Positions 5,912-35,271 of a stretch of DNA of 64,000 bases are shown here, in pieces. Both the position numbers and the translations under genes were made by a program. Position 1 is the first letter of the stretch; every line of letters begins with the position of its first letter. The notes below the pieces were generated by a model, which ran no database searches, was not told the DNA's origin, and worked only from the letters and a program-made list of their open reading frames with translations. Origin of the DNA: Verrucomicrobiota bacterium (GTDB taxonomy: Bacteria; Verrucomicrobiota; Verrucomicrobiia; Limisphaerales; Palsa-1400); the NCBI GenBank assembly GCA_049510745.1, contig JBEKYR010000031.1, forward strand, positions 1 through 64,000. Reading direction: 5' to 3'.

Positions 5912-6116
5912 AAAAAATTCGGAATGTGACTATTGCCACGAGAACGCGGAATTGCCAACTTCTTTTTGCCAAAAACAGACCAGATTTTGTTGTGGGCGCG
6001 GCCCGTCGCCAGCCGATCAGGACCCCTCATCGCAAGAAAGTGAGGTGAACCCGTCAACTGGCATGGCGCCGGGGAGGTCTTGACGAGTCCAAAGGTCAAC
6101 GCTCAAAGTTCAGCGA

Positions 6117-7091
6117 TTGATCGCGCCTTTGTCCAAACTCATTGACTGGACGGCCATTCAACTCGCGGCCGCGCGGATGCCGCAGGCGGATGGACGAAGT
6201 CCGCGGCTGGAGGAAGCGGGCCAATTCCTGCGGGGGCCAGAATTCATACCGTCGGAATCCGAGCCGGCGCGGGTGGAGTTCAACGGCCCGATGGATTTTC
6301 GTTTTCCCACCCCGCGTCCGGGCGACTTTGCGGAAAACAACGTCGTTTATGGCCGGCTCTACCGCTGCGCGGGGCGCTGGCGGGAACGGCCTGCGATCCT
6401 CCTGCTGCATGGCTGGAATGACCTCATCAATCATCAGCTTCGGTTTCCGTTGATCGCCCGCCGCTGCAACCGGGCGGGATTCAACGCGGCCACGCTGGTT
6501 GGTCCTTACCATTTTCAACGCCGTCCGCGCCAGCTTGGGGCGTGGGGCAATTTCTTGTGCCCGGATGTGTTGCGGACGGCGGAGGCGGCGGCGCAGGCGA
6601 TTGCGGAAATACGGGCATTGACGGGGTGGCTGTTGCGGGAAGGGTGTCCCGCCGTGGCGCTGTGGGGCATTTCGCTGGGGGCGTGGCTGGCGGGGTTGGC
6701 GGTGTGCCGCGATGGGCGCTGGGCCTCGGTCGTTCTGACCGCGCCGGTCGTGCGCATGGATCGGGTGATCGAGGAACTGGCCTTTTGCCGGAGCATTCGG
6801 GAGGCGTTGCAGGGACGGCGCGTGGAAGCGGACACGTTGAATCTGACCTCGGCCCGGCCGGCCATCCCCAAAGAGAATATATTGTTGATCGAAGCGACCC
6901 ATGATTTGTTTGCGCCGAAGGAAACCATCGAGGAACTCTGCCAGGCATGGGGGCGGCCCGACCTCTGGCGGCTGCCGCACGGGCACATCAGCTTTATGGG
7001 CGCGCCGGGCTTGACGGGCCGCGTCCTGCGCTGGCTGGCGCCGCGGCTGGGCGCATTCGGCGCGACAGAAAGGGACTTCCGTCAAGACTAA
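6117..7091 (+). CDS. Alpha/beta hydrolase (ABHD18/DUF2048-like); start uncertain
   Basis: ILLLHGW, PYHFQRRP, nucleophile elbow GISLG, acid in ATHDLF, C-terminal GH. Confidence 0.75.
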   Translation: MIAPLSKLIDWTAIQLAAARMPQADGRSPRLEEAGQFLRGPEFIPSESEPARVEFNGPMDFRFPTPRPGDFAENNVVYGRLYRCAGRWRERPAILLLHGWNDLINHQLRFPLIARRCNRAGFNAATLVGPYHFQRRPRQLGAWGNFLCPDVLRTAEAAAQAIAEIRALTGWLLREGCPAVALWGISLGAWLAGLAVCRDGRWASVVLTAPVVRMDRVIEELAFCRSIREALQGRRVEADTLNLTSARPAIPKENILLIEATHDLFAPKETIEELCQAWGRPDLWRLPHGHISFMGAPGLTGRVLRWLAPRLGAFGATERDFRQD

Positions 7092-18497: not shown

Positions 18498-19331
18498 ATG
18501 AAGCCCTACCTCGATCTTCTTCAGAACATACTCGATCAAGGCGTTCCTCGGGGAGACCGGACGGGCACCGGGACCAGGAGCATTTTTGGGGCGCAGTTGC
18601 GTTTTGACTTGTCGAAAGGCTTCCCGCTGGTCACCACGCGAAAAGTCTTCTTCAAAGGCATCATTCACGAACTTCTCTGGTTCCTCGCCGGCGATACCAA
18701 CATCAAGTACCTCACGGACCATAATGTTCATATTTGGGATGCCTGGGCCGATGACAAAGGGGATTTGGGTCCCGTGTATGGCGCGCAATGGCGGGCCTGG
18801 GAAGCCCCGGGCGGGCGGAAAATCGACCAAATCAGCCAACTCCTCCACCAGCTCCGGACCAAACCGGAATCCCGGCGGCATCTGGTCAGTGCCTGGAATC
18901 CCGCGGTGCTTCCTGACGAAAGCAGAAGCCCTCAGGATAATGTCCGCGCGGGATGCGCCGCCCTGGCCTCCTGCCACGCCCTCTTTCAATTCTACGTTGC
19001 CGGGGGCCGGCTGTCGTGCCAGCTCTACCAGCGTTCGGTTGACTGCCCGGTTGGCATGGTTTTCAACGTTCCGCAGTATTCATTGTTGACACACCTGATC
19101 GCCCAGCAGTGTGATTTGGAACCCGGGGACTTCGTCTGGACTGGCGGGGACTGCCACATTTACTTGAACCAGATTGAAAGCGTCCGGGAGCAGCTCAAGC
19201 GCGAACCCCGGCCACTACCAAAGCTGATCCTCAAGCGCAAACCCGCATCCATTTTCGAGTATCAGTTCGAGGATTTTGAAATCGTTGGCTACGACCCGCA
19301 TGCCCCGATCAAATATCCAGTGGCGGTGTGA
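18498..19331 (+). CDS. thyA: Thymidylate synthase
   Basis: [31 protein letters not shown], catalytic CH, LYQRSVD, FN, HIYLN. Confidence 0.96.
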
Positions 19332-22930: not shown

Positions 22931-23686
22931 ATGAAAAAAATCCTACCCCTTGTGGCGTGCGCCGTGGCGCTCGCGTTAATCGGTGCGGCAACTCTCAGGT
23001 CGGCGGAAATGGGCCGCAAAGAAGGCAAAGCCGTCGTGAGAGCAGTTCATGGCAACGTCGAGTATGAATCCAACGGCTCCTGGCTGAAAATGAAGGTGAA
23101 CATGGACCTGGCCCCCGGTGTGAGGATTCGCACCGGCCCGGATTCCTATACCGACCTGTTTGTCAATAATTCCTCCACCGTCCGCATCACCCAGGATACG
23201 TCGATGATCATTCCCGAAATGTTCCGCGTTGGCCCTGTCAGGGGAGCGGACACGGAAACGACCTTGGACCTGCAAACCGGCACGATCCTCGGCAACGTCA
23301 AGAAACTTTCCGCCAATTCCCACTATGAAATTAAAACGCCCCACGGCATCGCCGGTATTCGCGGCACCGACTTTCAAGTGACTTGCGTTTCGCAACCCAA
23401 TGGCGGGTACGTCGTCACCTTCACCAGCGTGACGGGCGAAGTGGTCGTTTCGGCAATAGTCGGTCCCCCCGGAACACCCCCCACGGTGAAAGTGCTGCGG
23501 ACGGGTGAATCCTGGACGCCGGGCCAGGGCGACGTCGTCCCAACGCCACAGGCGGTTATCGCTGCGGCGATAGACATTATCAAAAACTTGCCTGGCGGTA
23601 TCCCTCCAAGCGTTAATATCCCGACCCCGCCGCCGAAACCGCCGCCGTACACCCCGCCAGTTACGCCCAGTTCGCCCTCTTCCTAG
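22931..23686 (+). CDS. Secreted FecR-domain protein with Pro-rich tail
   Basis: Signal peptide; IRTGPDS, LDLQTGTI, YEIKTPHGIAGIRGTDF. Confidence 0.85.
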   Translation: MKKILPLVACAVALALIGAATLRSAEMGRKEGKAVVRAVHGNVEYESNGSWLKMKVNMDLAPGVRIRTGPDSYTDLFVNNSSTVRITQDTSMIIPEMFRVGPVRGADTETTLDLQTGTILGNVKKLSANSHYEIKTPHGIAGIRGTDFQVTCVSQPNGGYVVTFTSVTGEVVVSAIVGPPGTPPTVKVLRTGESWTPGQGDVVPTPQAVIAAAIDIIKNLPGGIPPSVNIPTPPPKPPPYTPPVTPSSPSS

Positions 23687-23761
23687 TTGGCCGGCGGCTG
23701 CGGTGAGAGATTTCACCCGGAGCGACTTGTGTTGCTCCGGGTTTTTTGTTTAGCTTCGGCC

Positions 23762-26068
23762 ATGCGCCTGAGTTTTATCCGATCACCGGCTTTTTTTAGC
23801 GCGGCTCCCGTCATTCTTGGCGTGTGCGCCCTCGAGTTGGCCCACCTCGTGGCCTTCCAACGCATGGAATGGATGACCTACGACTGGCGCGCCCGCCTGG
23901 CCCACAGTTATGCCGGGGCCGCGGCTCAGAATGCGACCAACCTGGGGTTGATCGAAGTCAGCGACACCACCATCGCGGCCGTGAACAGCGGGGAATTCGG
24001 CTTCACCTTCGGCCTCTACTGGCCCCGCGAAGTTTATTCCCGCGGCTTGCATGAACTTTCCCGCGACGGTGTCAAATGCGTCGCCTTCGATGTGCTCTTC
24101 GCCGAACAGCGCTTCGATCATCCCGATGTGCCGCTGCGGGACGGGACGAAGGTCAGTTCCGACGAGTACTTTGCGCGTCAATTAAAAGAATCCGGCAACG
24201 TCATCCTGGCGGCCGACCAGGATTTGATGCCGCATCGGCTCTTTGCCACCAACGCCTGGTGCGTCGCCAACATTTCCGTCAGCCGCGATGCCGACGGCGT
24301 CTTGCGCCGCGACCGGGCCTACGAGGACATTCGCGTCTGGGACCCGCTCATCCAAAACGTGGCCAAGTCCTACGACTTCAACCTCCGCCGGACGAGGATC
24401 GAGCCGAACAAAATCATTTTTGTGCGCCAGCGGGGCGGGGAAACGGTGGAGTTCCCCACCGATGGCACGGGCAGCATCGAGACCACTAATATCCTCAGTT
24501 CGATTCCCCCCGGCTTTCCGCGCAAGATCATTCCCTACCGCCTTTACCGCGCCTGGAGCATGGGCATCCGCATGGCCTCCAGGGAACTCCAGCTCGATTT
24601 GGACCACGTCGATTTCGAGCCGGGACGGATTATCCTGCACGGCGTGAACGGGATCACCCGCACGATTCCAGTCGATAACGACGGCTATTTTTACGTCGAT
24701 TGGGCCATGACCCCAAACGATCCGCGCCTGACGCGGGGCGCCTTCGAGGAATTGCTGGCCGCGCCGATCGAACGCGCCAATGGCAACACCGTGACCAATT
24801 TTTGGAAGGACAAGCTCGTGCTGGTCGGTTCGACCGCCACCGGCAATGATCTGGCCGACGTCGGCGCCACCCCGCTGGAGAGCCACACCTTCCTTGTCAC
24901 CAAACATTTGAACGTGGCCAACTCCGTCATCACCGGCCGCTTCATTCACACCACCCCGCTCGTTGTCAGCCTCTTGCTCATCCTCCTGGTCGGCGTGGCC
25001 TCGGCCTGGATCACCTGGGGCGTGGCCAAAGCGGCCCACGGCAGTTTGCTCATGCTCGCGTTTGCCGCCGTCTATGTCATCGCCACCTTGATCCTCTTCG
25101 AGGAGTTCCGCCTCTGGGTGCCGATAATCCTGCCTATGGTTTGCGCCGGTTTCGTCACTCATCTTTCCGCCGTCACCTTCCGCGTGCGCGTCGAGCAATC
25201 GGAAAGAAAACGGGTCAAGCAGCTTTTCTCCCGCCTGGTTTCCCCCGACGTCGTCAATGAAGTCCTCAATGCTCCCTCGCTCAAGGTGGGCGGCATCCGG
25301 CGCGAGATGACCATCTATTTTGCCGACGTCCGCGGCTTCACCGAATTGACCGATGAAACCCAGGCCCACGCCGCCGAATACATCCAGCAGCACAACCTGA
25401 GCGCGGACCAGGCCGAAGATTACTACGACGCCCAGGCCCGCGAAACCCTCAACACCGTCAGCACTTACCTCGGTACCATCGCCGACTGCGTCAAACAGCA
25501 CAAAGGAACCCTCGACAAGTACATCGGCGACTGCGTCATGGCTTTTTGGGGCGCCCCACTGCCCAATCCCCGCCACGCCGTGGACGCGGTGCGGTCGGCC
25601 ATTGACGCGCAACTGGCGCTCTATGCGTTGAATATGGAACGCCAGGCGCGCAACAAACAGATCGCGGAGGAAAACGCCGCGCGCGTCAAGCTGGGGCAGC
25701 CGCCGCTTCCCTACCTGCCGGTCCTTTTCATGGGCAGCGGGATCAACACCGGCACCGCCATCGCGGGATTGATGGGTTCCGACGCCCACATCGTCAACTA
25801 TACTGTTTTTGGCCGCGAGGTCAACCTGGCCAGCCGCCTGGAGGGCGTTTCCGGCCACGCCCGCATCATCATCGGCGAGGCCACCCACGCCGCCCTCAAA
25901 CGGGACGATCCCAAGCTGGCGGAAGCCTGCATCGAACTGGAACCCCAGAAGGTCAAGGGCTTTCGCACCGCCGTCCGGATTTTCGAGGTGTTGTGGCAGC
26001 CCGTTTCCGGCGCCCCGCTGCCCCCCGGCAGCACGGAGTACCGCGAGCGCAAGGCCGCTTCCCACTGA
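23762..26068 (+). CDS. CHASE2-domain class III adenylate/guanylate cyclase
   Basis: YDWR, WPREVY, VAFDVLF, DADGVLRR, DKLVLVG; three TMs; FADVRGFT, DKYIGDCVMAFWGAP, VNLASRLEG. Confidence 0.93.
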   Translation: MRLSFIRSPAFFSAAPVILGVCALELAHLVAFQRMEWMTYDWRARLAHSYAGAAAQNATNLGLIEVSDTTIAAVNSGEFGFTFGLYWPREVYSRGLHELSRDGVKCVAFDVLFAEQRFDHPDVPLRDGTKVSSDEYFARQLKESGNVILAADQDLMPHRLFATNAWCVANISVSRDADGVLRRDRAYEDIRVWDPLIQNVAKSYDFNLRRTRIEPNKIIFVRQRGGETVEFPTDGTGSIETTNILSSIPPGFPRKIIPYRLYRAWSMGIRMASRELQLDLDHVDFEPGRIILHGVNGITRTIPVDNDGYFYVDWAMTPNDPRLTRGAFEELLAAPIERANGNTVTNFWKDKLVLVGSTATGNDLADVGATPLESHTFLVTKHLNVANSVITGRFIHTTPLVVSLLLILLVGVASAWITWGVAKAAHGSLLMLAFAAVYVIATLILFEEFRLWVPIILPMVCAGFVTHLSAVTFRVRVEQSERKRVKQLFSRLVSPDVVNEVLNAPSLKVGGIRREMTIYFADVRGFTELTDETQAHAAEYIQQHNLSADQAEDYYDAQARETLNTVSTYLGTIADCVKQHKGTLDKYIGDCVMAFWGAPLPNPRHAVDAVRSAIDAQLALYALNMERQARNKQIAEENAARVKLGQPPLPYLPVLFMGSGINTGTAIAGLMGSDAHIVNYTVFGREVNLASRLEGVSGHARIIIGEATHAALKRDDPKLAEACIELEPQKVKGFRTAVRIFEVLWQPVSGAPLPPGSTEYRERKAASH

Positions 26069-26179: not shown

Positions 26180-26247
26180 TTGACAAGCCTCGGCGGAAAG
26201 CACTATTAGAAGCGTGCCGCACCTCGCGCGGGCACAAGCTGTAGTAG
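26180..26247 (+). promoter_or_regulatory. TTGACA -35 box plus two candidate NrdR boxes
   Basis: TTGACA 26180-26185; gcaCtAttagaaGcgt (26200-26215) and gcaCaAgcTgTaGtag (26232-26247), starts 32 bp apart. Confidence 0.55.
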
Positions 26248-26276: not shown

Positions 26277-28526
26277 ATGAGTGATTTGCCGCAAGAACAA
26301 TTACACATTCAAGGGCTTGATCCCTTGGAAGGGAGAACTTTTCGCGTCCGAAAACGCGATGGCCGGACCGAGGAATTCAACGAGGCGCGAATTCTTCTCG
26401 CTCTGGAATGCGCCTTCAAGGCCCACCACGGCCTCAGCCCTGAGAAACATTTGCCGGATGCGGTGCAAGCCGCGGTCAAGAAATGCGCCGACCATGTGGT
26501 CGAACGCGTCTTGAGCCGCGCGGTCAAGGGCGAGGAGTTGGAAGTCGAGCGCATCCAGGACGCGGCCGAGGACCAACTGATGACCGAGGGCCACCTGGAG
26601 GTGGCGCGCCGCTACATCCTCTACCGGGAAGAACGCCGCCGGACGCGGGTCGAGCGCGAATTGCGCGCCGTGTTCCAGGAATCAAAGCCGCCGCCGCCTG
26701 TCCCCAAAACCCCGACCGCCGCGCCGCCGGAAGAGCGTCCGCGAGCGGGGGGCCTTTCGGCGCAAGAATGGCTGCGCAGCATTTACGGCCAAGCCCTGCC
26801 CAAGCCACGGCCCGGTGAAACACTCCAAGAGGTTCATCGCCGCCATTTCGACTGCTGCCTCAACGAAGGAGAGTATCTGCGCCTGGTGGACGCCGAGTTG
26901 CTGGAGTTTGACTCCGCACGCCTCGCCCGCGGCCTGCGCCTGGAACGGGACCAAACCTTCACGGCGGCGGGATTGGAGGCGCTGCACGACCTTTACCTGC
27001 CCCGCGAAAATGGCCGCCGCCTCCAAACACCGCAGCATTTCTGGATGAAGATCGCCATGGGGCTGGCCTTGAACGAAGGCGCGGCGCGGGAAACGCGCGC
27101 CCTGGAGTTTTACGAAGTTCTCTCCACCTTCCGTTTCGTTCCCTCGGATTTGATCTTGCGCCACGCCGGCTCGCCCCATCCGCAACTGAGCGCCTGCCAC
27201 GGGGCCGCCTCCGCCTCTGATCTCGAACACGTCACGCTCCAACCCGGCGGCCCGGCCTGCTCCTGGCTGGAGCCTTGGCACCGTGATGTTTTGGCTTTCC
27301 TGGCGCGGCCCCAACCCGGCGGCGCTCCGTCGGACCCGCAATTGAACAAAGGGCTGTGGGTGCCGGACCTGTTCATGAAACGGCTCCGCCAGCAGGGCTC
27401 CTGGACGATCTTCGATCCCGGCGAGGCCGACGGCCTGCGCCGCTGCCAGGGCGCGGAATTTGAGGCGCGGTACCTCGAATACGAGCAACAAGCCGCGCGG
27501 GGCGGCCTGCGCTTTTCCCGGCGGATAAACGCAGCGGACTTGTGGCGCCAGGTCCTGGTGTCGCTCCTGCAAACCGGCCAGCCCTGGCTCGGCTTCAAGG
27601 ACGCTGTCAATACTCGTTCCACGCGGGACCACCGCGGCCCGGTTTGCGGCGCGGGCGTGGATGGCGACGTTTTGCCCAAGACCTTCCCCTACGAAGGGAC
27701 CGCCTGCCCGTTGGGAGCGATCAACCTCGCCGCCCATCTGACGGATCGGGGCGTTGGTCTCGATGTGACGCAATTGCGGGCCACCGTCACCGCGGCGGTT
27801 CGCATGCTCGATAACGCCGTCGATTTGAGCGCCTACCCGGCGGAGCCGCTTCGCGCCGCCAGCCGGGAACAGCGGCCCATCGGCCTGGGTGTGGCGGGCT
27901 TTGCCGATGCCCTCGACCGCCTCCAACTCCAGCCGGCCAGCGCGGCCGCCGCCGACTTTGCCGACTGGAGCATGGAATTGGTCTCTTACTTTGCCATCCT
28001 GGCCTCGGCGGAACTGGCCGCCGAACGCGGCCCCTGTCCCGGCTATGCCGCCTCCAAGTGGAGCCGCGGCCTCCTGCCCCTCGACACCCTGGCGCTGCTG
28101 TCAAGCAGACGCGGCCTGCCCGTGGATGTCAACGCCGCCGCCGCCCAGGATTGGGAACCCGTCCGCGCCATGATTCGGCGGCATGGGATGCGCCACTGCG
28201 CCACCACCGCCGTCGCCTCCTGCCACGGCCCCGCCCGTGTCGCCGGCCTGGCTCCCTTCCCGGACGCCGGAGCGACCGACCCTTTCTGGCTGATCGAGTG
28301 CGCGGCGCGGCGTCAGAAATGGATCGACCTGGGCCACACCCTCGACCTGCCCGCGCCGGAACGGGACCTGGCGAAAATCTCGCGCCTCTACACGCAGGCC
28401 TGGGAAAAAGGGCTGAAAACCATCCATCAGTTGCTTCCCGCCGCGCAACTTCAGGAACATCCGGGCGTGGCCGGGGTCCCGGCGGCGATCCAGCCGCCGC
28501 CGGAAATGGCCGCCGCCCCGGTTTGA
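26277..28526 (+). CDS. ATP-cone-containing ribonucleotide reductase alpha (NrdA)-like protein, predicted catalytically inactive
   Basis: ATP-cone VRKRDG...VERIQD...VARRYILYRE; PQHFWMKIAMGLA, PQLSAC, WVPDLFMKR, QTGQPWLGFKD, RPIGLGVAG, RRQKWID, AWEKGLKT; catalytic motifs altered. Confidence 0.85.
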   Translation: MSDLPQEQLHIQGLDPLEGRTFRVRKRDGRTEEFNEARILLALECAFKAHHGLSPEKHLPDAVQAAVKKCADHVVERVLSRAVKGEELEVERIQDAAEDQLMTEGHLEVARRYILYREERRRTRVERELRAVFQESKPPPPVPKTPTAAPPEERPRAGGLSAQEWLRSIYGQALPKPRPGETLQEVHRRHFDCCLNEGEYLRLVDAELLEFDSARLARGLRLERDQTFTAAGLEALHDLYLPRENGRRLQTPQHFWMKIAMGLALNEGAARETRALEFYEVLSTFRFVPSDLILRHAGSPHPQLSACHGAASASDLEHVTLQPGGPACSWLEPWHRDVLAFLARPQPGGAPSDPQLNKGLWVPDLFMKRLRQQGSWTIFDPGEADGLRRCQGAEFEARYLEYEQQAARGGLRFSRRINAADLWRQVLVSLLQTGQPWLGFKDAVNTRSTRDHRGPVCGAGVDGDVLPKTFPYEGTACPLGAINLAAHLTDRGVGLDVTQLRATVTAAVRMLDNAVDLSAYPAEPLRAASREQRPIGLGVAGFADALDRLQLQPASAAAADFADWSMELVSYFAILASAELAAERGPCPGYAASKWSRGLLPLDTLALLSSRRGLPVDVNAAAAQDWEPVRAMIRRHGMRHCATTAVASCHGPARVAGLAPFPDAGATDPFWLIECAARRQKWIDLGHTLDLPAPERDLAKISRLYTQAWEKGLKTIHQLLPAAQLQEHPGVAGVPAAIQPPPEMAAAPV

Positions 28527-28591: not shown

Positions 28592-30962
28592 TCAGCGCAC
28601 CTGGAGGCGGTAGAACTGGGCGCCCAGGGCTGGATTGGGGTTGACAAAACAGTTCGTCCCGCCCTCAAGGGTGCATGTGCCGATGACCTGCCAGTTCAAC
28701 AAATCAGCGGAAGACTCGATGTTCACCGGCAGGTTGGTAAGACCGGTGATCCCGAAACCGAATTGGCCGGCGTTCAGACTGGGTGGCTGTAACATCGGCG
28801 CTGCTGAACTGGCCGGAAATCCTTTCCGGATGGTGTTGTTGAAAGTGTCCGTCACATAGAGGTTGCCCGCGCTGTCCACCGCCACGCCGTAAGGGTTATT
28901 AAACCCCGCGTTGCTCCCCGTCCCGTCCGCGCTGGCACTCCAGCCCGGCCATCCCGCCAGCGTCGTCACCACCCAATTCGTTCCGACCGGCGTCACTTCC
29001 CGGATCGTGGAGTTCCAGGAGTCCGTCACATAGACGTTGCCCGCCAAGTCCACCGTCAAGTAAGACGGGTTGGAAAACTGCGCGGCGCTGTTCGTCCCGT
29101 CCGCGCTGCCAGAAGTTCCCGCCAGTCCGGCCAGAGTGGTCACCTCCCAACTCGCGCCGACCGGCGTCACTTTCCGGATCGTGTTGTTGCCCGAGTCCGC
29201 CACATAGACGTTGCCCGCGCTGTCCAGCGCCACGTCGCCAGGACCATTAAACCGCGCGGCGCTCCCCGTGCCGTCATTCGTACCAGTACTGCCCGCCAGT
29301 CCGGCCAGGGTCGTCACCACGCCCGCCGACGTCACTTTCCGGATCGTCGAGTTGTTATAATCTGCCACATAGACGTTGCCATTGGTGTCCACCGCCACGC
29401 CGGTAGGATAACTAAACCGCGCGTTGCTCCCCGTCCCGTTCTGGCTGCCCGTAACACCAGCCAGTCCGGCCAGGGTCGTCACCACGCCCGCCGACGTCAC
29501 TTTCCGGATCGTCGAGTTGTTACAATCTGCCACATAGACGTTGCCCGCGTTGTCCACCGCCACGCCGGCAGGCTCATTAAACAGTGACACCCGCCAGTCC
29601 GGCCAAGGTCGTCACCATGCCCGCCGGCGTCACTTTCCGGAGGGTCGAGTTTAGCTCCTCCGCCACATAAAGGTTGCCATTGGTGTCCACCGCCACACCG
29701 TCCGGCAAGTTAAACCGCGCGGCGCTCCCCGGCCCGTCCGCGCTGCCAGGACAGCCCGCCAGTCCCGCTAGCGTCGTCACCACGCCCGCCGACGTCACTT
29801 CCCGGATCGTGTTGTTGATCGTGTCCGCCACATAGACGGTGCCATTGGTGTCCACCGCCACGCCTTGAGGCCAGTAAAACTGCGCCGCGCTCCCCGTGCC
29901 GTCATTCGTACCAGTACTGCCCGCCAGTCCGGCCAGGGTCGTCACCACGCCCGCCGGCGTCACTTTCCGGATCGTCGAGTTGGCATAATCTGCCACATAG
30001 ACGTTGCTCGCGTTGTCCACCGCCACGCTACTAGGATAATCAAACCGGGCGGCGCTCCCAGTACCGTTCTGGCTGCCAGTAACACCCGCCAGGCCGGCCA
30101 GGGTCGTCACCACCCAATTCATTCCGTCGGGCGTCATTTTCCGGATCGTGCTGTTCTGGTGGTCCGCCACATAGAGGTTGCCCGCGCTGTCCACCGCCAT
30201 GCCGGCAGGATAATGAAACCGCGCGGCGCTCCCGGTCCCGTCCGCGCTGCCGGCACTGCCCGCCAGCCCGGCCAGGGTCGTCACCACGCCCGCCGGCGTC
30301 ACTTCCCGGATTGTGTCGTTGTCCCTGTCCGCCACATAGAGGTTGCCCGCGCTGTCCACCGCCACACCCCGAGGATAATTAAACCGCGCGGCGCTCCCCG
30401 TGCCGTCATTCGTGCCAGAACTGCCCGCCAGTCCGGCCAGGGTCGTCACCACGCCCGCCGGCGTCACTTTCCGGATCGTGTTGTTGCCGCCGTCCGTCAC
30501 ATAGACGTTGCCATTGGCGTCCACCGCCACGCGGCCAGGATCATTAAACCGCGCGTTGCTCCCCGTCCCATCCGCGCTGCCGGCAACGCCCGCCAGTCCG
30601 GCCAGGGTCGTCACCACCCAATTCGTTCCGACTGGCCTCACTTTCCGGATCGTGTTGTTCTGGTCGTCCCCCACATAGAGGTTGCCCGCGCTGTCCACCG
30701 CCACCCCCATAGGCTGCGCGAACCGCGCGGCGCTGTTCGTCCCGTCCGCGCTGCCAGAGCCGCTGTCCCCGGCCAGGGTGGTGAAGGTGTAGGGAGTGGC
30801 GTAATTGGCCTGGCCAAAGGCGGCCAGGGGCAGGACGGCCAGCCAGAGCAGGGCGCCCGGCAAATTCCCGGCCAGCCGCCGGAAAAGACTATCGGGTTTC
30901 GTCATGTATCCAGTGCCGGACCAGCGTCCGGCGCGATTTGAAGGGACAACGTTCTTTTTCAT
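28592..30962 (-). pseudogene. Secreted NHL-repeat protein split by a frameshift near 29583 (ORFs ending at 29577 and 28592)
   Basis: Repeats F..P.GVAVD..GNVYVAD..N.TIRKVT..GVVTTLAG run through both ORFs; at the junction ACT G TTT stands where sister repeats have ACG + 11 codons + TTT. Confidence 0.8.
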
Positions 30963-31043
30963 TGTTTGTGATCTTTTGTTTTGAATTGGTCCTCCGACCA
31001 GGACGCGCTTCGGGCCTCCTTGGCCCCGCTGTGGGGTCTGCCA

Positions 31044-31163
31044 AAAGAGGACTTCTTCGCGGTCATCAGCCGGTTTCATAGGCGAAGGCGTTGGTGCCTT
31101 CACTCATACATGCGCATTCGGGCGGGAAAAAGTATGGAGGCATTTCAGAAATCTTTTTCGCCA
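31044..31163 (-). repeat. Direct repeat copy A (kinase promoter and first codons)
   Basis: Highly similar to 34544-34663 at offset 3500; shared block ttggtgccttcactcatacatgcg. Confidence 0.9.
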
Positions 31164-31213
31164 GTCCACTTCCTGCAAATCAGCGAGGGGCGTCCGGCCT
31201 CACTGAAATCAGG

Positions 31214-34200
31214 TCACCGGGTCCCTGCCTTTTCGGCATCTGCGATCTCCGCCCATGACGGAGCGCGCCAGAAATGAACCACCCCATCGCGCCCGCCGGT
31301 CGCCAGGATTTTGTCATCGGGCGAGAATTGGACGAAATACTGAGGAACATCGGTTTTAAAAGTGAGGATTTCACGGTCGGTCTCCAGGTCCCAAAGTTTT
31401 ACCGCCGGATCGTCACTGCCGCTGGCCAAGGTCCGCCCATCGCTGGAAAAGGCCAGTTGTATGACACCTGTCTTGTGTCCGGTTAGAGTTGCCACTTCCT
31501 TTTTCGCGTTAAGGTCGCAAACTTCGATGCTGCCGTCCCAACTCCCCGCGGCGAACAGGCCACGGCTGGAGAAAGCCAGGGCGGCAACGGGATCCCTGAA
31601 ACCAGCCACGGTCCAAATCACCTGCCGCTTCTGCAAATCCCACAGTTTGGCCGTCAGGTCATAATGCCCCGAGGCGAGCAGCTTGCTGTCCGGCGAGAAC
31701 AACAGACACCGGGCCGTTGTTACCGGAAGCTCGAACAGAGCTTTACCGGTGAGAAGGTCATTCACGACAATTCGGCCAGGGTGCGAGGTCGCAACCAGTT
31801 TGCCATCGGGCGAAAGGGCGGAATCAAAGATTCTGCTTACAGGAGTGGCGACCGTCGTGGACGCGAGCAGCGATTGCGTTGAAAGGTCCCACTGTCGAAG
31901 CAGCGTCAATGATTCGTCGCGTGTGATTAGACTTTTGCCATCAGCCGAAAAGACCACCGGGTAACCCTCCATGTCCCGGCCAGCCTGGACTTGTCCAGTG
32001 GATGTCTCCCAAAGCCTGACGCCGCCGCCAACAGTGGTGGCCGCCAGGCGTTTTCCGTCTGGGGAAAAAACCGGCAATCCAACGTGGTCGAATCGATCCA
32101 TGGCGATATTGGTAATGGTATTTTGTTCTCTTGAGGCCGAAGGATTCCAAAGCATGACTGTATCGTCCAAACTGCCGCTGGCCAGCGACCTGCCATCGGG
32201 TGAAAACGTCACAGCCCAAACCTCTTTCCCATGTCCACGCAGACTTCCCAGCATCTGGCAGCTTGGGATCTCCCACAGAGTAATATCATGGGTCTTGTTC
32301 CCGGTTGCCAGAAGCCGGCCGTCCGGAGAAAAGGCGACGCTAAGAATTGCAGCGATGGCTTTTGATAGAATCGCCGGCCTTTGCTTGGTCAACTCCCACA
32401 GCCCCGTAACCCCGGAACCGGCGCCCCAGGCCAGGAAGCGTCCATCCGGCGAAAACGCCAAAGAAAGGACGTTTTCGCTGGAATAGGAATTGAATGGCTT
32501 TAAGTCTTCGAGACGCCACAGTTTGATCAATCCGCCCCCGTTGGCGGTCGCGAGGATTTTGCCGTCGGGAGAAAACGCAACCCGGCCCCCCGGCTCGGGC
32601 AAGACGGACATCATCCGGCCGGCAGCGTAGTTCCACAGTTGCACGGGACCGTCTGTTTCACCATAGATGTTACCACCCGTCGCGATGGCCAGAAGACCGC
32701 CTGAAATGGCCAGGTAGGCTGCGTGGTTTGTCGTAGTGATGGTGAGAACGATCTGATGCGTCCGGGCATCCCATAATCGAACCAAGCCGTCCGCACCCCC
32801 GCTGGCAAATAACTTTCCATCGGGCGAGAAAGCCACGGACATAACCTCGGCGGAATGGCCGGCGCAATTGGCGATGAGTTCGCCGGTTATCGCATTCCAA
32901 AGTCTCACCGTGTGATCCGAACTGCCGGAGGCCAGCATCGTTCCGTCCGGTGAATAGGCGACGCAATTGACGTAATTCGAGTGGCCAACCAACGTCTTAA
33001 GCTGCTCGCCCCGGCTCTTGCCCCACAGGTAACGCCATTCGAAGCCGCGCAGGTCTTCCTGCCCGGGTTCAGGTTGATGTTGCGCGAGCATCCGGCGAGC
33101 GAGGCCAAAGTTTCCATCCTCCAAGGCGAGGTTCGCCGCGATCAGGTCCGAGGCGTAGGCGTTTCGCCGGGTGGCAGCTTCCCGCGCGTCGGCAAGCTGG
33201 CGCAAGCGGCTTTGCTCCCGCTCGGCCTCCAGGGTCTGTTGATGGGCTTTCTTCTCCTGAACGAACATCCAGGTAGAAACGCCCAAGCCGAGGATGAGCG
33301 CCGCAGTCACGGCACTGGCAGCAATGAAGGCCAGCTTGTTGCGCCGCACCATTTTCTGAAACAGATACATCTTGCCCGGCGGCCGGGCCAGCACAGGCTC
33401 GTTGCCGATGTGCCGCTCAAGGTCCGCAGCCAACCCGCTGGCCGTCTCGTAACGCCGTGTTCGATCCTTCTCCAGACACTTCATCACGATCCAATCCAAG
33501 TCCCCGCGCACCAGATTCAGCAGCTTGGGCGCATCGGTCTGACGGCGCTTGGCCGTGGTCGTCAACTCGCCTTCGCCCAGGGTGGTCAGGCGGGTGCTCG
33601 GCCGTCGCGGTTCCTCTTCGCGGATGGTCCGGCGCATCTCTTCAATCCCCTTGGCCAGCAATTCCTTTGCGTCAAACGGCGTCTTGCCTGTCAACAACTC
33701 GTAGAGCAACACCCCAAGGCTGTAGATGTCGCTGCGGGTGTCGATGTCCAGCCCGGCCATCTCGGCTTGTTCCGGACTCATGTACGCCGGCGTGCCGATC
33801 ATTTGCTCCAGCGCCGTGTAAATGGTTTTCTCGGTCAACCGCTGCTCCGTCGCCTTGGCCACCCCAAAATCAATCACTTTCGGCACCGCGACGCCATCGT
33901 GTATGGCCACCAGAATGTTCGACGGTTTGATATCCCGATGAATCACTCCCTTCTGATGCGCGTGCTGGACGGCATGGCAAATCTGGACGAACAAATCCAA
34001 CCGCTCCCCGGTGGAGAGGTTGTTCTGGTCGCAGTAATCGGTGATTTTAATCCCCTGCACCAGTTCCATCACAAAGAACGGACGGCCTTTGTCCGTGGCG
34101 CCCGCGTCGAACACCTTGGCGATATTGGGATGGTCCATCAGCGCCAGGGCCTGCCGTTCGGCCTCGAAACGAGCCAACACTTGTTTGCTGTCCATCCCCG

Positions 34201-34579
34201 GCCGGATGACCTTGAGGGCCACCCGCCGTTTGACCGGCTCCTCCTGCTCGGCCAGATAGACGACACCGCAGCCGCCTTCGCCAATTTGCTGGAGGAGACA
34301 ATAGCGGCCAATCTTGTCGCCCGGCTTCTCGGCGAGAGGGTCCGAAGGGGTGGCGGTTTGCCCCGGCAATGGAATGGCCAGTTCTTTCAAGAAGTCGCCC
34401 GCCGGCGGTTCGAGGAATGGGTCGGGACTCTCATGGGCCTTAAGAAGCGCTGCGAGCCTGGCGCGAAGCGCCGCGTTCTCCGCGCAGGCCCGGTCAAGGT
34501 AGTTTTCGCGCTCCGGGCCACTCGTCCGTTGCAGCGCCTCGCGAAAGAGGACTTCTTCCCTGTCGTCAGCCGGTTTCAT
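31214..34579 (-). CDS. Hanks-type Ser/Thr kinase with TM helix, coiled coil and WD40 repeats (alternative GTG start 34603)
   Basis: IGEGGCGVVY, VALKVI, HRDIKPSN, DFG, GTPAYMSPEQ, DIYSLG; many GH...VAFSPDG..LASG..D..V.LW repeats. Confidence 0.95.
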   Translation of the reverse strand: MKPADDREEVLFREALQRTSGPERENYLDRACAENAALRARLAALLKAHESPDPFLEPPAGDFLKELAIPLPGQTATPSDPLAEKPGDKIGRYCLLQQIGEGGCGVVYLAEQEEPVKRRVALKVIRPGMDSKQVLARFEAERQALALMDHPNIAKVFDAGATDKGRPFFVMELVQGIKITDYCDQNNLSTGERLDLFVQICHAVQHAHQKGVIHRDIKPSNILVAIHDGVAVPKVIDFGVAKATEQRLTEKTIYTALEQMIGTPAYMSPEQAEMAGLDIDTRSDIYSLGVLLYELLTGKTPFDAKELLAKGIEEMRRTIREEEPRRPSTRLTTLGEGELTTTAKRRQTDAPKLLNLVRGDLDWIVMKCLEKDRTRRYETASGLAADLERHIGNEPVLARPPGKMYLFQKMVRRNKLAFIAASAVTAALILGLGVSTWMFVQEKKAHQQTLEAEREQSRLRQLADAREAATRRNAYASDLIAANLALEDGNFGLARRMLAQHQPEPGQEDLRGFEWRYLWGKSRGEQLKTLVGHSNYVNCVAYSPDGTMLASGSSDHTVRLWNAITGELIANCAGHSAEVMSVAFSPDGKLFASGGADGLVRLWDARTHQIVLTITTTNHAAYLAISGGLLAIATGGNIYGETDGPVQLWNYAAGRMMSVLPEPGGRVAFSPDGKILATANGGGLIKLWRLEDLKPFNSYSSENVLSLAFSPDGRFLAWGAGSGVTGLWELTKQRPAILSKAIAAILSVAFSPDGRLLATGNKTHDITLWEIPSCQMLGSLRGHGKEVWAVTFSPDGRSLASGSLDDTVMLWNPSASREQNTITNIAMDRFDHVGLPVFSPDGKRLAATTVGGGVRLWETSTGQVQAGRDMEGYPVVFSADGKSLITRDESLTLLRQWDLSTQSLLASTTVATPVSRIFDSALSPDGKLVATSHPGRIVVNDLLTGKALFELPVTTARCLLFSPDSKLLASGHYDLTAKLWDLQKRQVIWTVAGFRDPVAALAFSSRGLFAAGSWDGSIEVCDLNAKKEVATLTGHKTGVIQLAFSSDGRTLASGSDDPAVKLWDLETDREILTFKTDVPQYFVQFSPDDKILATGGRDGVVHFWRAPSWAEIADAEKAGTR

Positions 34580-34663
34580 AGGCCAAGGTGTTGGTGCCTT
34601 CACTCATACATGCGTCATTTAGGCGGAAAAAGTATGGATGATTTTCACGCATTCCTTTCGCCA
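34544..34663 (-). repeat. Direct repeat copy B (native kinase promoter and first codons)
   Basis: Partner of 31044-31163. Confidence 0.9.
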
Positions 34664-34707
34664 CTGGCCCCGCTTCAACCAGCGCCGGGGCGGGAGGCTA
34701 ACCGACT

Positions 34708-35271
34708 TCAACCACCCGCGCGCATCGCCACCGCCAGCCAGGCCCGGGCGTAGGCCCACCATTCCTTCGCCGTCGGTACGGCGATGCCCAGCACCGAGGC
34801 CGCCTCTTCGAACGTCATCCCCGCGAAGTAGCGCAGCTTCACCAATTCAGCCTGACGCGGATGGATGGCGGCAAACTGCTCCAGGACCTCATCGACCGCC
34901 AGCAGTCTCTCGTCGTCGTCCGCTACGAGAGGAATCTCTGCCTCATCCAGTTCGACGCGGTCCGCTCCACCACCGCGCTTCAGGGCCGTCCGCCGCCGCG
35001 CGCGCTCGACCAGAATCCGGCGCATCGCTTCGGCCGCCGCGGCGAAGAAATGGGCGCGATTCTTCCACGCCGGCTGGGCATCAGCGCCCAGCCGCAACCA
35101 GGCCTCGTGAACGAGCGCGGTGGGTTGCAGGGTTTGGCCGGGCGCCTCCTGGGCCATCTTGTGGGCGGCGAGTCTGCGCAACTCTTCATAGACCAGCGGA
35201 AACAGTTCCCCGGCAGGCGGCGGTTCGCCTCCCTCCATGTGCTCCTCACTTTTGGGAACGTCAATCCTCAT
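34708..35271 (-). CDS. ECF sigma factor, TIGR02999/STK-associated type
   Basis: LFPLVYEELRRLA, TLQPTALVHEAWLRL, RAHFFAAAAEAMRRILV, KRGGG, LVKLRYFAG, WAYARAWL. Confidence 0.93.
   Translation of the reverse strand: MRIDVPKSEEHMEGGEPPPAGELFPLVYEELRRLAAHKMAQEAPGQTLQPTALVHEAWLRLGADAQPAWKNRAHFFAAAAEAMRRILVERARRRTALKRGGGADRVELDEAEIPLVADDDERLLAVDEVLEQFAAIHPRQAELVKLRYFAGMTFEEAASVLGIAVPTAKEWWAYARAWLAVAMRAGG

Follow-up and report, generated by a model that had tools for sequence, protein, structure and literature searches.

Ribonucleotide reductase (RNR) is essential and heavily studied, and inactive RNR large subunits are described, in the main texts of the literature that we searched, only in herpesviruses; no bacterial case was found there, and supplements of RNR sequence sets could list such proteins as outliers. 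HCMV UL45, MCMV M45 and the HHV-6B RNR are reported to be inactive R1 homologues with other roles (PMC5469499, PMC11772975), and the betaherpesvirus R1, a viral protein, acts on host RIP1/NF-kB signalling. Regulatory ATP-cones are known from further proteins. The cone of L. blandensis NrdB (PDB 5OLK) sits on a different chain from the catalytic subunit that it regulates, which has no cone itself (PMC5794259), and NrdR is a repressor made of a Zn-ribbon and an ATP-cone, with nucleotide-dependent oligomerisation (PMC9110341). The control of total dNTP where the sole RNR has no cone has been called enigmatic and is presumed to be transcriptional (PMC4390871).

Here we describe a catalytically dead homologue of NrdAz, the RNR alpha subunit with tandem ATP-cones, encoded at 26277..28526 (+) in a window of 64,000 nucleotides (positions 1-64,000, forward strand, of contig JBEKYR010000031.1, assembly GCA_049510745.1) from a Verrucomicrobiota bacterium (Limisphaerales; Palsa-1400). 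Like NrdAz (P. aeruginosa NrdA, 5IM3, PRK07207), this protein, dead NrdAz, begins with a two-dATP cone that retains the residues for nucleotide binding and for the cone-cone interface. Unlike NrdAz, it has no thiyl-radical Cys/Asn/Glu, Tyr relay, CxxC tail, specificity site, dimer helices or second cone, and it stands alone without nrdB. It resembles betaherpesvirus R1 in keeping an RNR large-subunit fold without catalytic residues for another role, but it is chromosomal and bacterial, carries an ATP-cone and a predicted NrdR operator, and has a separate origin. With L. blandensis NrdB it shares the two-dATP cone class and the helix 3/4 interface; that protein, however, is an active, obligate beta subunit, whereas dead NrdAz is a dispensable alpha scaffold for which NrdJ is no more than a candidate partner. 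Like NrdR, it is non-catalytic, bears an ATP-cone and is a predicted member of the RNR regulon, with ATP/dATP sensing suggested by its residues. Unlike NrdR, it has no DNA-binding domain (Pfam finds cone and RNR domains only) and an RNR-type cone, and it looks like an NrdR target rather than the regulator.

Results

An earlier sequence-only reading of this DNA proposed an uninterrupted frame of about 750 aa with an NrdA scaffold, and translation, Pfam, alignment and modelling bear this out. The 749-aa frame has 0 internal stops, and Pfam places an ATP-cone at residues 23-121 (E 8.6e-18), the RNR all-alpha domain at 228-301 and the RNR barrel at 325-649. The AlphaFold2 model (pLDDT 85.8, pTM 0.77) predicts the RNR alpha/beta barrel fold, and its top Foldseek match is PDB 5IM3 (E 7.5e-49, TM 0.69). 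The best sequence match is also P. aeruginosa NrdA (E 2e-116), and matches in the ESM Atlas are to RNR clusters only. The protein falls under the curated cut-off of all NCBIfam NrdA/NrdJ models, the top one being PRK07207 (526 vs 965 bits); the class II NrdJ model TIGR02504 gives 134 bits (cut-off 400), and there is no NPCxE finger loop.

The catalytic parts are lost, as that reading had held. The finger loop SNLCTE has become AGVDGD (27651..27668), with G460, D462 and D464 at the Asn, Cys and Glu positions; gap-free alignments to P. aeruginosa NrdA and to the canonical relative P0107 place D462 at the position of the catalytic cysteine, and residues 451-470 are modelled at pLDDT 51-56 without secondary structure. 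C457, five residues early, was considered as a substitute catalytic cysteine and rejected because it is not conserved. The proposed substitutions in three further motifs were all found: KTIHQ replaces the radical-relay KTxYY (canonical KTTYY; 28416..28430), SDLILRH stands at the position of PTLFN (27144-27164) and ASCHG at that of APTAT (28215-28229). The shuttle cysteines are indeed missing, with no CxxC in the tail past KTIHQ. Both of the large in-frame deletions noticed earlier are visible in anchor spacings. From QLSSC to YLEWH there are 19 aa vs 76, and this collapsed specificity site (27183..27281), which has lost the dimer helices, loop 1 and loop 2, is modelled as short strands (residues 306-331). 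From APTAT to KTxYY there are 59 aa here vs 123, and alignment spacing puts the junction of this deletion of about 64 aa at 28245..28286. A third deletion, absent from the earlier reading, removed most of the second ATP-cone, in whose place there is a Pro-rich flexible linker (26667..26756; pLDDT <50 at 132-155; dN/dS 0.71). The all-alpha domain (26757..27176; dN/dS 0.21), which closes with SDLILRH, the changed form of the phosphate-binding motif, is retained in every deletion class, and the segment 3' of the finger loop, through ASCHG (27699..28229), has a dN/dS of 0.14. Equivalents of C225 and C462 (E. coli numbering of the earlier reading) had been said to remain. These equivalents, C307 and C477, are present here but give no family-wide signal (48/99 and 65/99 relatives); the only near-universal cysteine among dead relatives is C675 (89/99).

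The claim of an intact ATP-cone also stood. The cone is of the two-nucleotide type known from PaNrdA, LbNrdB and PcNrdD (PF03477; residues 21-130, 26337..26666), and its KR roof, stacking Tyr, C-terminal helix Args, Asp-Arg bridge and helix 3/4 interface are all present. The motif spacings in PMC5794259 and PMC11226230 locate K26, R27, D95, E98, M102, R111, I114, Y116, R117, R120 and R124, each of which is kept in 94-98 of 99 relatives; seven key ones occur together in 93/99. Mean identity, dead vs live, is 0.80 vs 0.70 in the roof, 0.77 vs 0.72 in helices 3/4 and 0.56 vs 0.83 in the barrel; the dead proteins represent a single bacterial family and the live ones several, which can inflate the contrast for the cone. 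Conservation in at least 80% of dead proteins extends to 36/39 of the cone positions that are invariant in live ones, against 0/15 for the finger loop and 2/71 for the specificity site. The dN/dS of the cone is 0.106 in dead and 0.081 in live proteins. By these measures the cone is the most constrained part of dead NrdAz, and the residues kept suggest that it senses ATP/dATP. The ATP-cones found in the host genome are those of NrdR and dead NrdAz only.

Across 99 relatives the full Asn+Cys+Glu triad and each relay Tyr are found in 0/99, and the C-terminal CxxC in 0/99 vs 18/18 canonical proteins; the finger-loop Cys is kept in 32/99, and the whole loop is missing in 41/99. About 100 sequence clusters span a graded series of deletions, 975 aa at the long end and under 600 aa at the short, with deletions accumulating onward through 749, 685, 586 and 482 aa. 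Carriers make up 20/31 genomes of the host's bacterial family and 9/10 genera; the other 11/31 have no match, several of them being over 93% complete, so dead NrdAz is dispensable. In 19/20 genomes the copy is unbroken; frameshifts near the C-terminus occur in G022 (=P0105) and P0100, and G005, P0073 and P0091 have lost the cone in frame and kept the barrel.

That this is a retained non-catalytic protein, not a decaying pseudogene, was supported by orthologues that share the losses and by dN/dS far below 1. The overall dN/dS is 0.185 (0.13-0.19 across estimates), compared with 0.07 for nrdJ, and that of the folded core is 0.13-0.18 under three codon models; dN/dS = 1 was rejected in 12/12 pairs, the two closest pairs giving 0.41-0.51. 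Between carriers dS is mostly >1, and 0/300 simulated frames stay open once 0.25 substitutions per site have built up neutrally. The barrel of the cone-less G005 shows 15 nonsynonymous vs 31 synonymous private changes.

The gene is apparently monocistronic, with flanking genes that differ between genera, and has a predicted promoter and operator that the sequence-only reading did not mention and that are kept despite changing neighbours. A -35-like hexamer TTGACA (26180..26185, +) precedes the -10 TATTAG (26204-26209), which is atypical, so a sigma-70 scan of the upstream region gave no full consensus promoter. Predicted NrdR box 1, GCACTATTAGAAGCGT (26200..26215, +), overlaps the -10 region, and predicted box 2, GCACAAGCTGTAGTAG (26232..26247, +), follows after a 16-bp spacer; NrdR box spacers are usually 15-16 bp (PMC12051234). 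Both were scored with a matrix whose training set was the nrdJ boxes of 18 other genomes. At 14.7, the score of the pair is equalled or exceeded at 12 of 5,621,595 genome positions, and the nrdR and nrdJ promoters score 12.6 and 31.1. A TTGAC element at fixed spacing 5' of box 1 is found in 27/28 dead-gene upstream regions, and a box pair above the genome's 99.99% quantile in 28/28, vs 22/1000 random windows. By these matches, dead NrdAz appears to belong to the predicted NrdR regulon, with boxes that resemble the ones at nrdJ and nrdR. The carriers' neighbourhoods revealed no conserved operon partner; only FecR plus a CHASE2 adenylate cyclase recurs upstream, in G000, G024 and G009, and L079 has the cyclase too. 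In G025, a member of the same genus, other genes flank the copy. A cobalamin riboswitch precedes 10/16 live nrdA loci and 0/7 dead loci.

In trees, dead NrdAz branches within the live NrdAz of its order, and a second dead clade is separate from the first (AU p 2e-6), with the cone motif kept in the three members read. Dead NrdAz thus appears, on this phylogeny, to have arisen at least twice. Its tree and that of nrdJ agree on genus-level groups (6/11 splits shared, the deep ones unresolved). A mobile or viral origin was rejected on the grounds of these nrdJ-like groups, a GC3 of 0.78, similar to that of neighbouring genes, and negative viral searches: NxCxE was missing in 0/76 long viral ORFs, and no phage record covered 80% of the protein.

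As the earlier reading had noted, no nrdB is adjacent; there is none in the host genome (94% complete) and 0/31 family genomes have one. Its expectation of an intact nrdAB or nrdJ elsewhere held for NrdJ only, as no intact nrdA was among the matches of family genomes. An NrdJ without a cone serves as the working reductase (in the host, TIGR02504 533 bits, finger loop NPCSE); nrdR is found in 31/31 and nrdD in 1/31 family genomes. A sample of 401 genomes of the class holds nearly coincident NrdA and NrdB sets (222 and 221), and its two other NrdA-only genomes have one live gene and one partial gene. The suggestion that dead NrdAz modulates a true class I RNR had to be dropped: the alpha-pairing dimer helices are deleted, and neither NrdA nor NrdB, which it would modulate, was found in the family. 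NrdJ of 14 carriers and 6 non-carriers showed no carrier-specific constraint (2 columns), and a predicted complex of the cone (18-132) with the NrdJ core (38-772) scored 0.00 against a mark of 0.32, a result counted neither way.

Discussion

By its sequence, dead NrdAz is a protein without radical chemistry that keeps its fold and is under purifying selection, to which the cone is subject most strongly. In all likelihood it acts as a nucleotide-sensing regulator and not as the enzyme of its database label. The best reading of this pseudo-enzyme, which we consider fairly probable, is an NrdR-regulated scaffold switched by ATP/dATP. A double-cone class I NrdA would have become a pseudo-enzyme after nrdB was lost and the cell relied on B12-dependent NrdJ. 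At low dATP, NrdR would leave its boxes and dead NrdAz would be made alongside NrdJ. Its cone would take two ATP or two dATP. As the alpha2 dimer helices are gone, the protein is probably a monomer, and rising dATP may cause cone-to-cone pairing via helices 3/4. This switch would alter how the helical domain and the C-half barrel are presented to a partner, and the dATP/ATP ratio would thereby be reported to the DNA-precursor or replication machinery. The leading candidate partner is NrdJ, itself without a cone, followed by NrdR.

The alternative that survives best, although we think it unlikely, places the selected function in the helical domain and C-half barrel, as an older moonlighting role of NrdAz to which the cone is modulatory or optional, for example as a binder of replication or repair proteins or as a phage-factor decoy, in the manner of the repurposed herpesvirus R1. 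Both parts survive every deletion class down to 482 aa, three cone-less members have an intact barrel, the two independent origins point to a second role that already existed, and PMC5469499 offers a viral precedent. Against this, the cone is the most constrained region and its loss is rare (3 of about 100), and the invariant barrel positions are mostly Gly, Trp, Leu, Pro and Ala plus known structural motifs, with no new invariant polar cluster standing out. It is less probable that dead NrdAz is a slowly decaying relic with an inherited promoter and no positive function, selected only against misfolding or toxic variants. Patchy presence (20/31), stepwise erosion, frameshifted and cone-less copies and the higher dN/dS of the closest pairs would fit. 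A promoter or start mutation would, however, be the easiest route of loss, yet promoter and operator are kept in 27-28 of 28 unrelated neighbourhoods; 96-98 of 99 relatives retain the cone's surface Arg/Lys/Tyr, which folding alone would not demand, and the gene persists in 9/10 genera with saturated dS. A partner-free dATP buffer, co-induced with NrdJ to delay re-repression by NrdR or damp a dATP overshoot, is a poorer candidate again: co-regulation through the predicted boxes, two nucleotide sites that look intact by their residues and the cone-less NrdJ suit it, but it leaves selection on 350-600 aa of non-cone fold unexplained, the likely amounts of protein are far below dATP pools, and ATP is a competitor at the site. 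That the protein is still a reductase, or another radical or redox enzyme with a different radical source, is scarcely credible, since C307, C477 and the finger-loop Cys of 32/99 relatives are outweighed by the Asp in this loop, its absence in 41/99, the triad count of 0/99, the loss of substrate-phosphate motifs and loop 2, the want of any near-universal cysteine beyond C675 and the lack of nrdB in family genomes.

The reading as an ATP/dATP-switched scaffold has a narrower form, itself unlikely, in which the dead alpha, co-induced through NrdR, is an in-trans dATP off-switch for the cone-less NrdJ and evolved repeatedly in Verrucomicrobia. If this were true, a catalytic subunit of one RNR class would have become an allosteric regulatory subunit of another. 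Databases name these proteins 'ribonucleoside-diphosphate reductase alpha', and because dead proteins carry this name, nrdA counts and the oxygen and B12 inferences drawn from them are wrong for these genomes. This chromosomal family of dead bacterial proteins shows which parts of NrdA are expendable and which are retained for a non-catalytic role, and it provides a direct test case for dNTP control where the only RNR has no ATP-cone.

Loss of catalysis with retention of the fold

The frame at 26277-28526 (+ strand) translates into 749 amino acids with zero internal stops, to which Pfam assigns an ATP-cone, an all-alpha domain and a barrel of ribonucleotide reductase (RNR), and which scores under all curated NrdA and NrdJ cut-offs of the NCBIfam models. 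Among solved structures, P. aeruginosa NrdA (5IM3) is nearest both by sequence and by fold. Gap-free alignments put Gly460 at the Asn of the finger loop, Asp462 at its Cys and Asp464 at its Glu. In place of the relay KTxYY the protein has KTIHQ, both motifs for the substrate phosphate are changed, and a CxxC tail was sought and is absent. Three in-frame losses stand out. Most of the second cone is gone, the specificity site and dimer helices are reduced to 19 aa from 76, and ~64 aa are missing ahead of the last strands, where a span of 59 aa replaces one of 123. An AlphaFold2 model built on an 86-row alignment retains the RNR fold (pLDDT 85.8, pTM 0.77), with a low-confidence linker and a finger-loop region without structure. 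The sequence-only reading, an uninterrupted RNR alpha homologue without radical chemistry, is borne out by the open frame, the lost triad, relay and CxxC, and the predicted fold; the position equivalent to C439 is Asp462 in the gap-free alignments.

A family of inactive relatives

A homologue search with this protein found 3342 proteins, and named relatives among the best 120, which we examined, are Verrucomicrobiota. From these 120 and the query we removed 18 canonical sequences, the window's own duplicate (P0002), a fragment (P0009) and two frameshifted sequences (P0100 and P0105), leaving 99 dead relatives. The finger-loop Asn is kept in 5, the Cys in 32, the Glu in 1 and all three in none; either relay tyrosine and CxxC are each found in 0 of 99, and the redox cysteines (C225 and C462 equivalents) persist in 48 and 65, respectively. 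Orthologues sharing the losses, which the earlier reading had proposed to look for, thus exist, with graded deletions: the C-terminal block is kept in 21, lost with the finger loop kept in 37, and lost together with the loop in 41. More reduced proteins, 586 or 482 aa long (L051:7547-9304 in genome G016, loci L052 and L053, and protein P0145) lack the N-half of the barrel and retain only the cone, helical domain and C-half, offering a natural minimal construct for experiments. An early stage of the series comes from a different family within the order, whose two genomes concerned have no nrdB; there, full-length or partial genes for dead NrdA carry both cones and a pair of predicted NrdR boxes (L055:7208-10132 in G210, a full-length open frame of 975 aa, and L056:7489-8970 in G253).

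The dead sequences of the order form one group amid live NrdAz (SH-aLRT 97-99), grouping weakly (SH-aLRT 81) with live nrdA loci that are not riboswitch-led. A profile search of 50% representatives added more dead proteins, mostly full-length, three of them named Puniceicoccales or Verrucomicrobia. Six (P0166, P0171, P0180, P0196, P0202 and P0242; two named Puniceicoccales) form a second group adjoining other live sequences, full length and with cones and specificity site; P0196 retains NLCxE and has lost both tyrosines and CxxC. This group, from other Verrucomicrobia, appears independent of that of the order. A tree that places the 14 dead rows tested in one clade was rejected (AU p 2e-6, LG+G4; 34 of 62 rows, with the grouping picked after an earlier tree was seen), and given the long branches, separate origins should be read with caution. 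The single-contig genome G523 carries an RNR barrel gene broken over several frames (C1:3141529-3143174), and also an intact RNR gene.

Genomic context

The window's genome (94% complete) encodes NrdR and an intact NrdJ with NPCSE and a C-terminal cysteine cluster; NrdB and NrdD were looked for there and neither was found, and its only ATP-cones found are those of NrdR and the dead gene. The working RNR expected elsewhere in the genome is thus NrdJ, and the suggestion that the protein modulates NrdAB does not fit a family that lacks both subunits: nrdB occurs in 0 of the 31 family genomes, and no intact nrdA stood among their matches. The dead gene is carried by 20 of these 31, all 31 have nrdR and one has nrdD; of the 21 nrdJ loci examined, 20 yielded an NPCSE-bearing NrdJ frame, and the single exception sits at the edge of a contig. 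Across the order, nrdB is present in 45 of 251 sampled genomes (including the unpublished G220) and adjoins live nrdA at 15 of 16 live loci fetched, the remaining locus being cut short. Because NrdA and NrdB occupy almost identical genome sets in the class sample (n=401), a lone NrdA is exceptional.

The dead gene appears as a stand-alone unit, with neighbours that differ between carriers. Immediately upstream lie a FecR-domain gene and a CHASE2 adenylate cyclase (22931-26068), an order shared by genomes G024 and G009; the cyclase also occurs at locus L079 and is absent beside other carriers. Thymidylate synthase, another dNTP gene, lies ~7 kb upstream (18498-19331). A lineage-specific insert (28592-35271, - strand) converges on the dead gene; it holds two NHL-repeat genes (Pfam) and after them, as judged by eye, an apparent Ser/Thr kinase-WD40 gene and a gene apparently for an ECF sigma factor.

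A conserved, predicted NrdR operator

A TTGACA (26180-26185, + strand) precedes two predicted 16-bp NrdR boxes (matrix match, 26200-26215 and 26232-26247, + strand); a sigma-70 scan of this upstream region called no promoter because the -10 is atypical. With a matrix trained solely on nrdJ boxes from 18 other genomes, the pair scores 14.7. Of 5.6 million positions, 12 equal or beat this value; the pair at the nrdR promoter itself scores lower, at 12.6. Box pairs above the 99.99% quantile were present in 28 of 28 dead-gene upstream regions examined, vs 22 of 1000 random windows, and the TTGAC-to-box layout recurs in 27 of 28. PMC12051234 gives a 15-16 bp spacer as the common NrdR geometry, and PMC9110341 describes repression by NrdR upon dATP plus ATP loading. 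Live nrdA loci of the order are riboswitch-led in 10 of 16 cases; the rest are organised otherwise, at least two with box pairs. The cobalamin riboswitches (loci L057-L063, L070, L074, L150 and L054) lie directly upstream of these 10 and of nrdD in genome G008, and L057 has a second, weak match just after nrdA (6112-6337). Other high-scoring box-like pairs in the window's genome (C2:192887, C2:45165, C10:35367 and C49:4192) possibly mark extra NrdR regulon members; that at C2:192887 precedes an 830-aa ORF resembling, by eye, a type II topoisomerase B subunit.

The ATP-cone and a proposed switch

Residues of two-dATP cones and their helix 3/4 interface are named in PMC5794259 and PMC11226230, and their equivalents by motif spacing (K26, R27, D95, E98, M102, R111, I114, L115, Y116, R117, R120 and R124) are all present. 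Each is kept in 94-98 of the 99 dead relatives, and seven key residues jointly in 93. Several cone roof positions are almost fixed in the dead family and variable in live enzymes, a pattern that could reflect either a new interface or just narrower ancestry. In P. aeruginosa NrdA only the outer cone binds ligand (PMC9669993), and this is the cone that the dead protein retains.

We propose that the product is probably an NrdR-controlled, ATP/dATP-switched scaffold. At low dATP it would be made alongside NrdJ, as a monomer because the dimer helices are missing; rising dATP would pair the proteins cone-to-cone, altering how a partner reaches the surface formed by the retained helical domain and the C-half of the barrel. 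The computational results establish the lost catalysis, the kept fold, the selection and the conserved operator; expression, binding, oligomerisation and the partner are inferences of the model.

Selection and alternative explanations

Across 14 genomes, the dead gene has a dN/dS of 0.185 and their nrdJ one of 0.071; live nrdA gives 0.059 (14 other genomes). The folded core falls at 0.13-0.18 under three codon models. By region, the dead gene gives 0.106 for the cone, 0.21 for the helical domain, 0.19 and 0.14 for the barrel, 0.15 for the last strands, 0.71 for the linker and 0.62 for the tail; the cone and barrel of live enzymes give 0.081 and 0.045, so constraint on the barrel has loosened three- to four-fold and that on the cone hardly at all. 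A moonlighting or decoy role based on this barrel is an unlikely alternative; the cone was lost in frame with the rest of the dead barrel intact in L046 (genome G005), P0073 and P0091, and G005 retains the promoter boxes.

Slow decay of the gene is somewhat less likely. The dN/dS check put forward earlier gave rejection of dN/dS = 1 in 12 of 12 pairs, although deep dS is saturated and values reach 0.41 and 0.51 in the two closest pairs, on untrimmed frames. Under simulated neutral drift all 300 frames were closed by 0.25 substitutions per site, yet among the 20 genome copies 19 are unbroken, the frameshift in G022 reflecting error or decay. This frameshift, the 11 genomes without the gene and the three cone losses speak against a strict requirement for it. 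Slightly less likely again is a partner-free dATP buffer, which would leave the selected non-cone fold without a role. Residual catalysis is very improbable for a protein that retains none of the radical residues.

Relation to known systems

The protein descends from NrdAz and does not qualify as an enzyme of that kind. If the scaffold reading is right, it would work like NrdR and L. blandensis NrdB, which are cone-bearing regulators. The inactive R1 proteins of betaherpesviruses (PMC5469499) offer a parallel. The literature searched, from which most subscription papers were absent, did not describe an inactive NrdA encoded on a bacterial chromosome, and passages of two RNR phylogeny papers and a review (PMC9669993, PMC9531940, PMC4390871) mention none. 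Overall, this dead NrdAz is genuine, conserved and wrongly annotated, a bacterial form of RNR pseudo-enzyme, and there is a good case that it senses nucleotides within the NrdR regulon.
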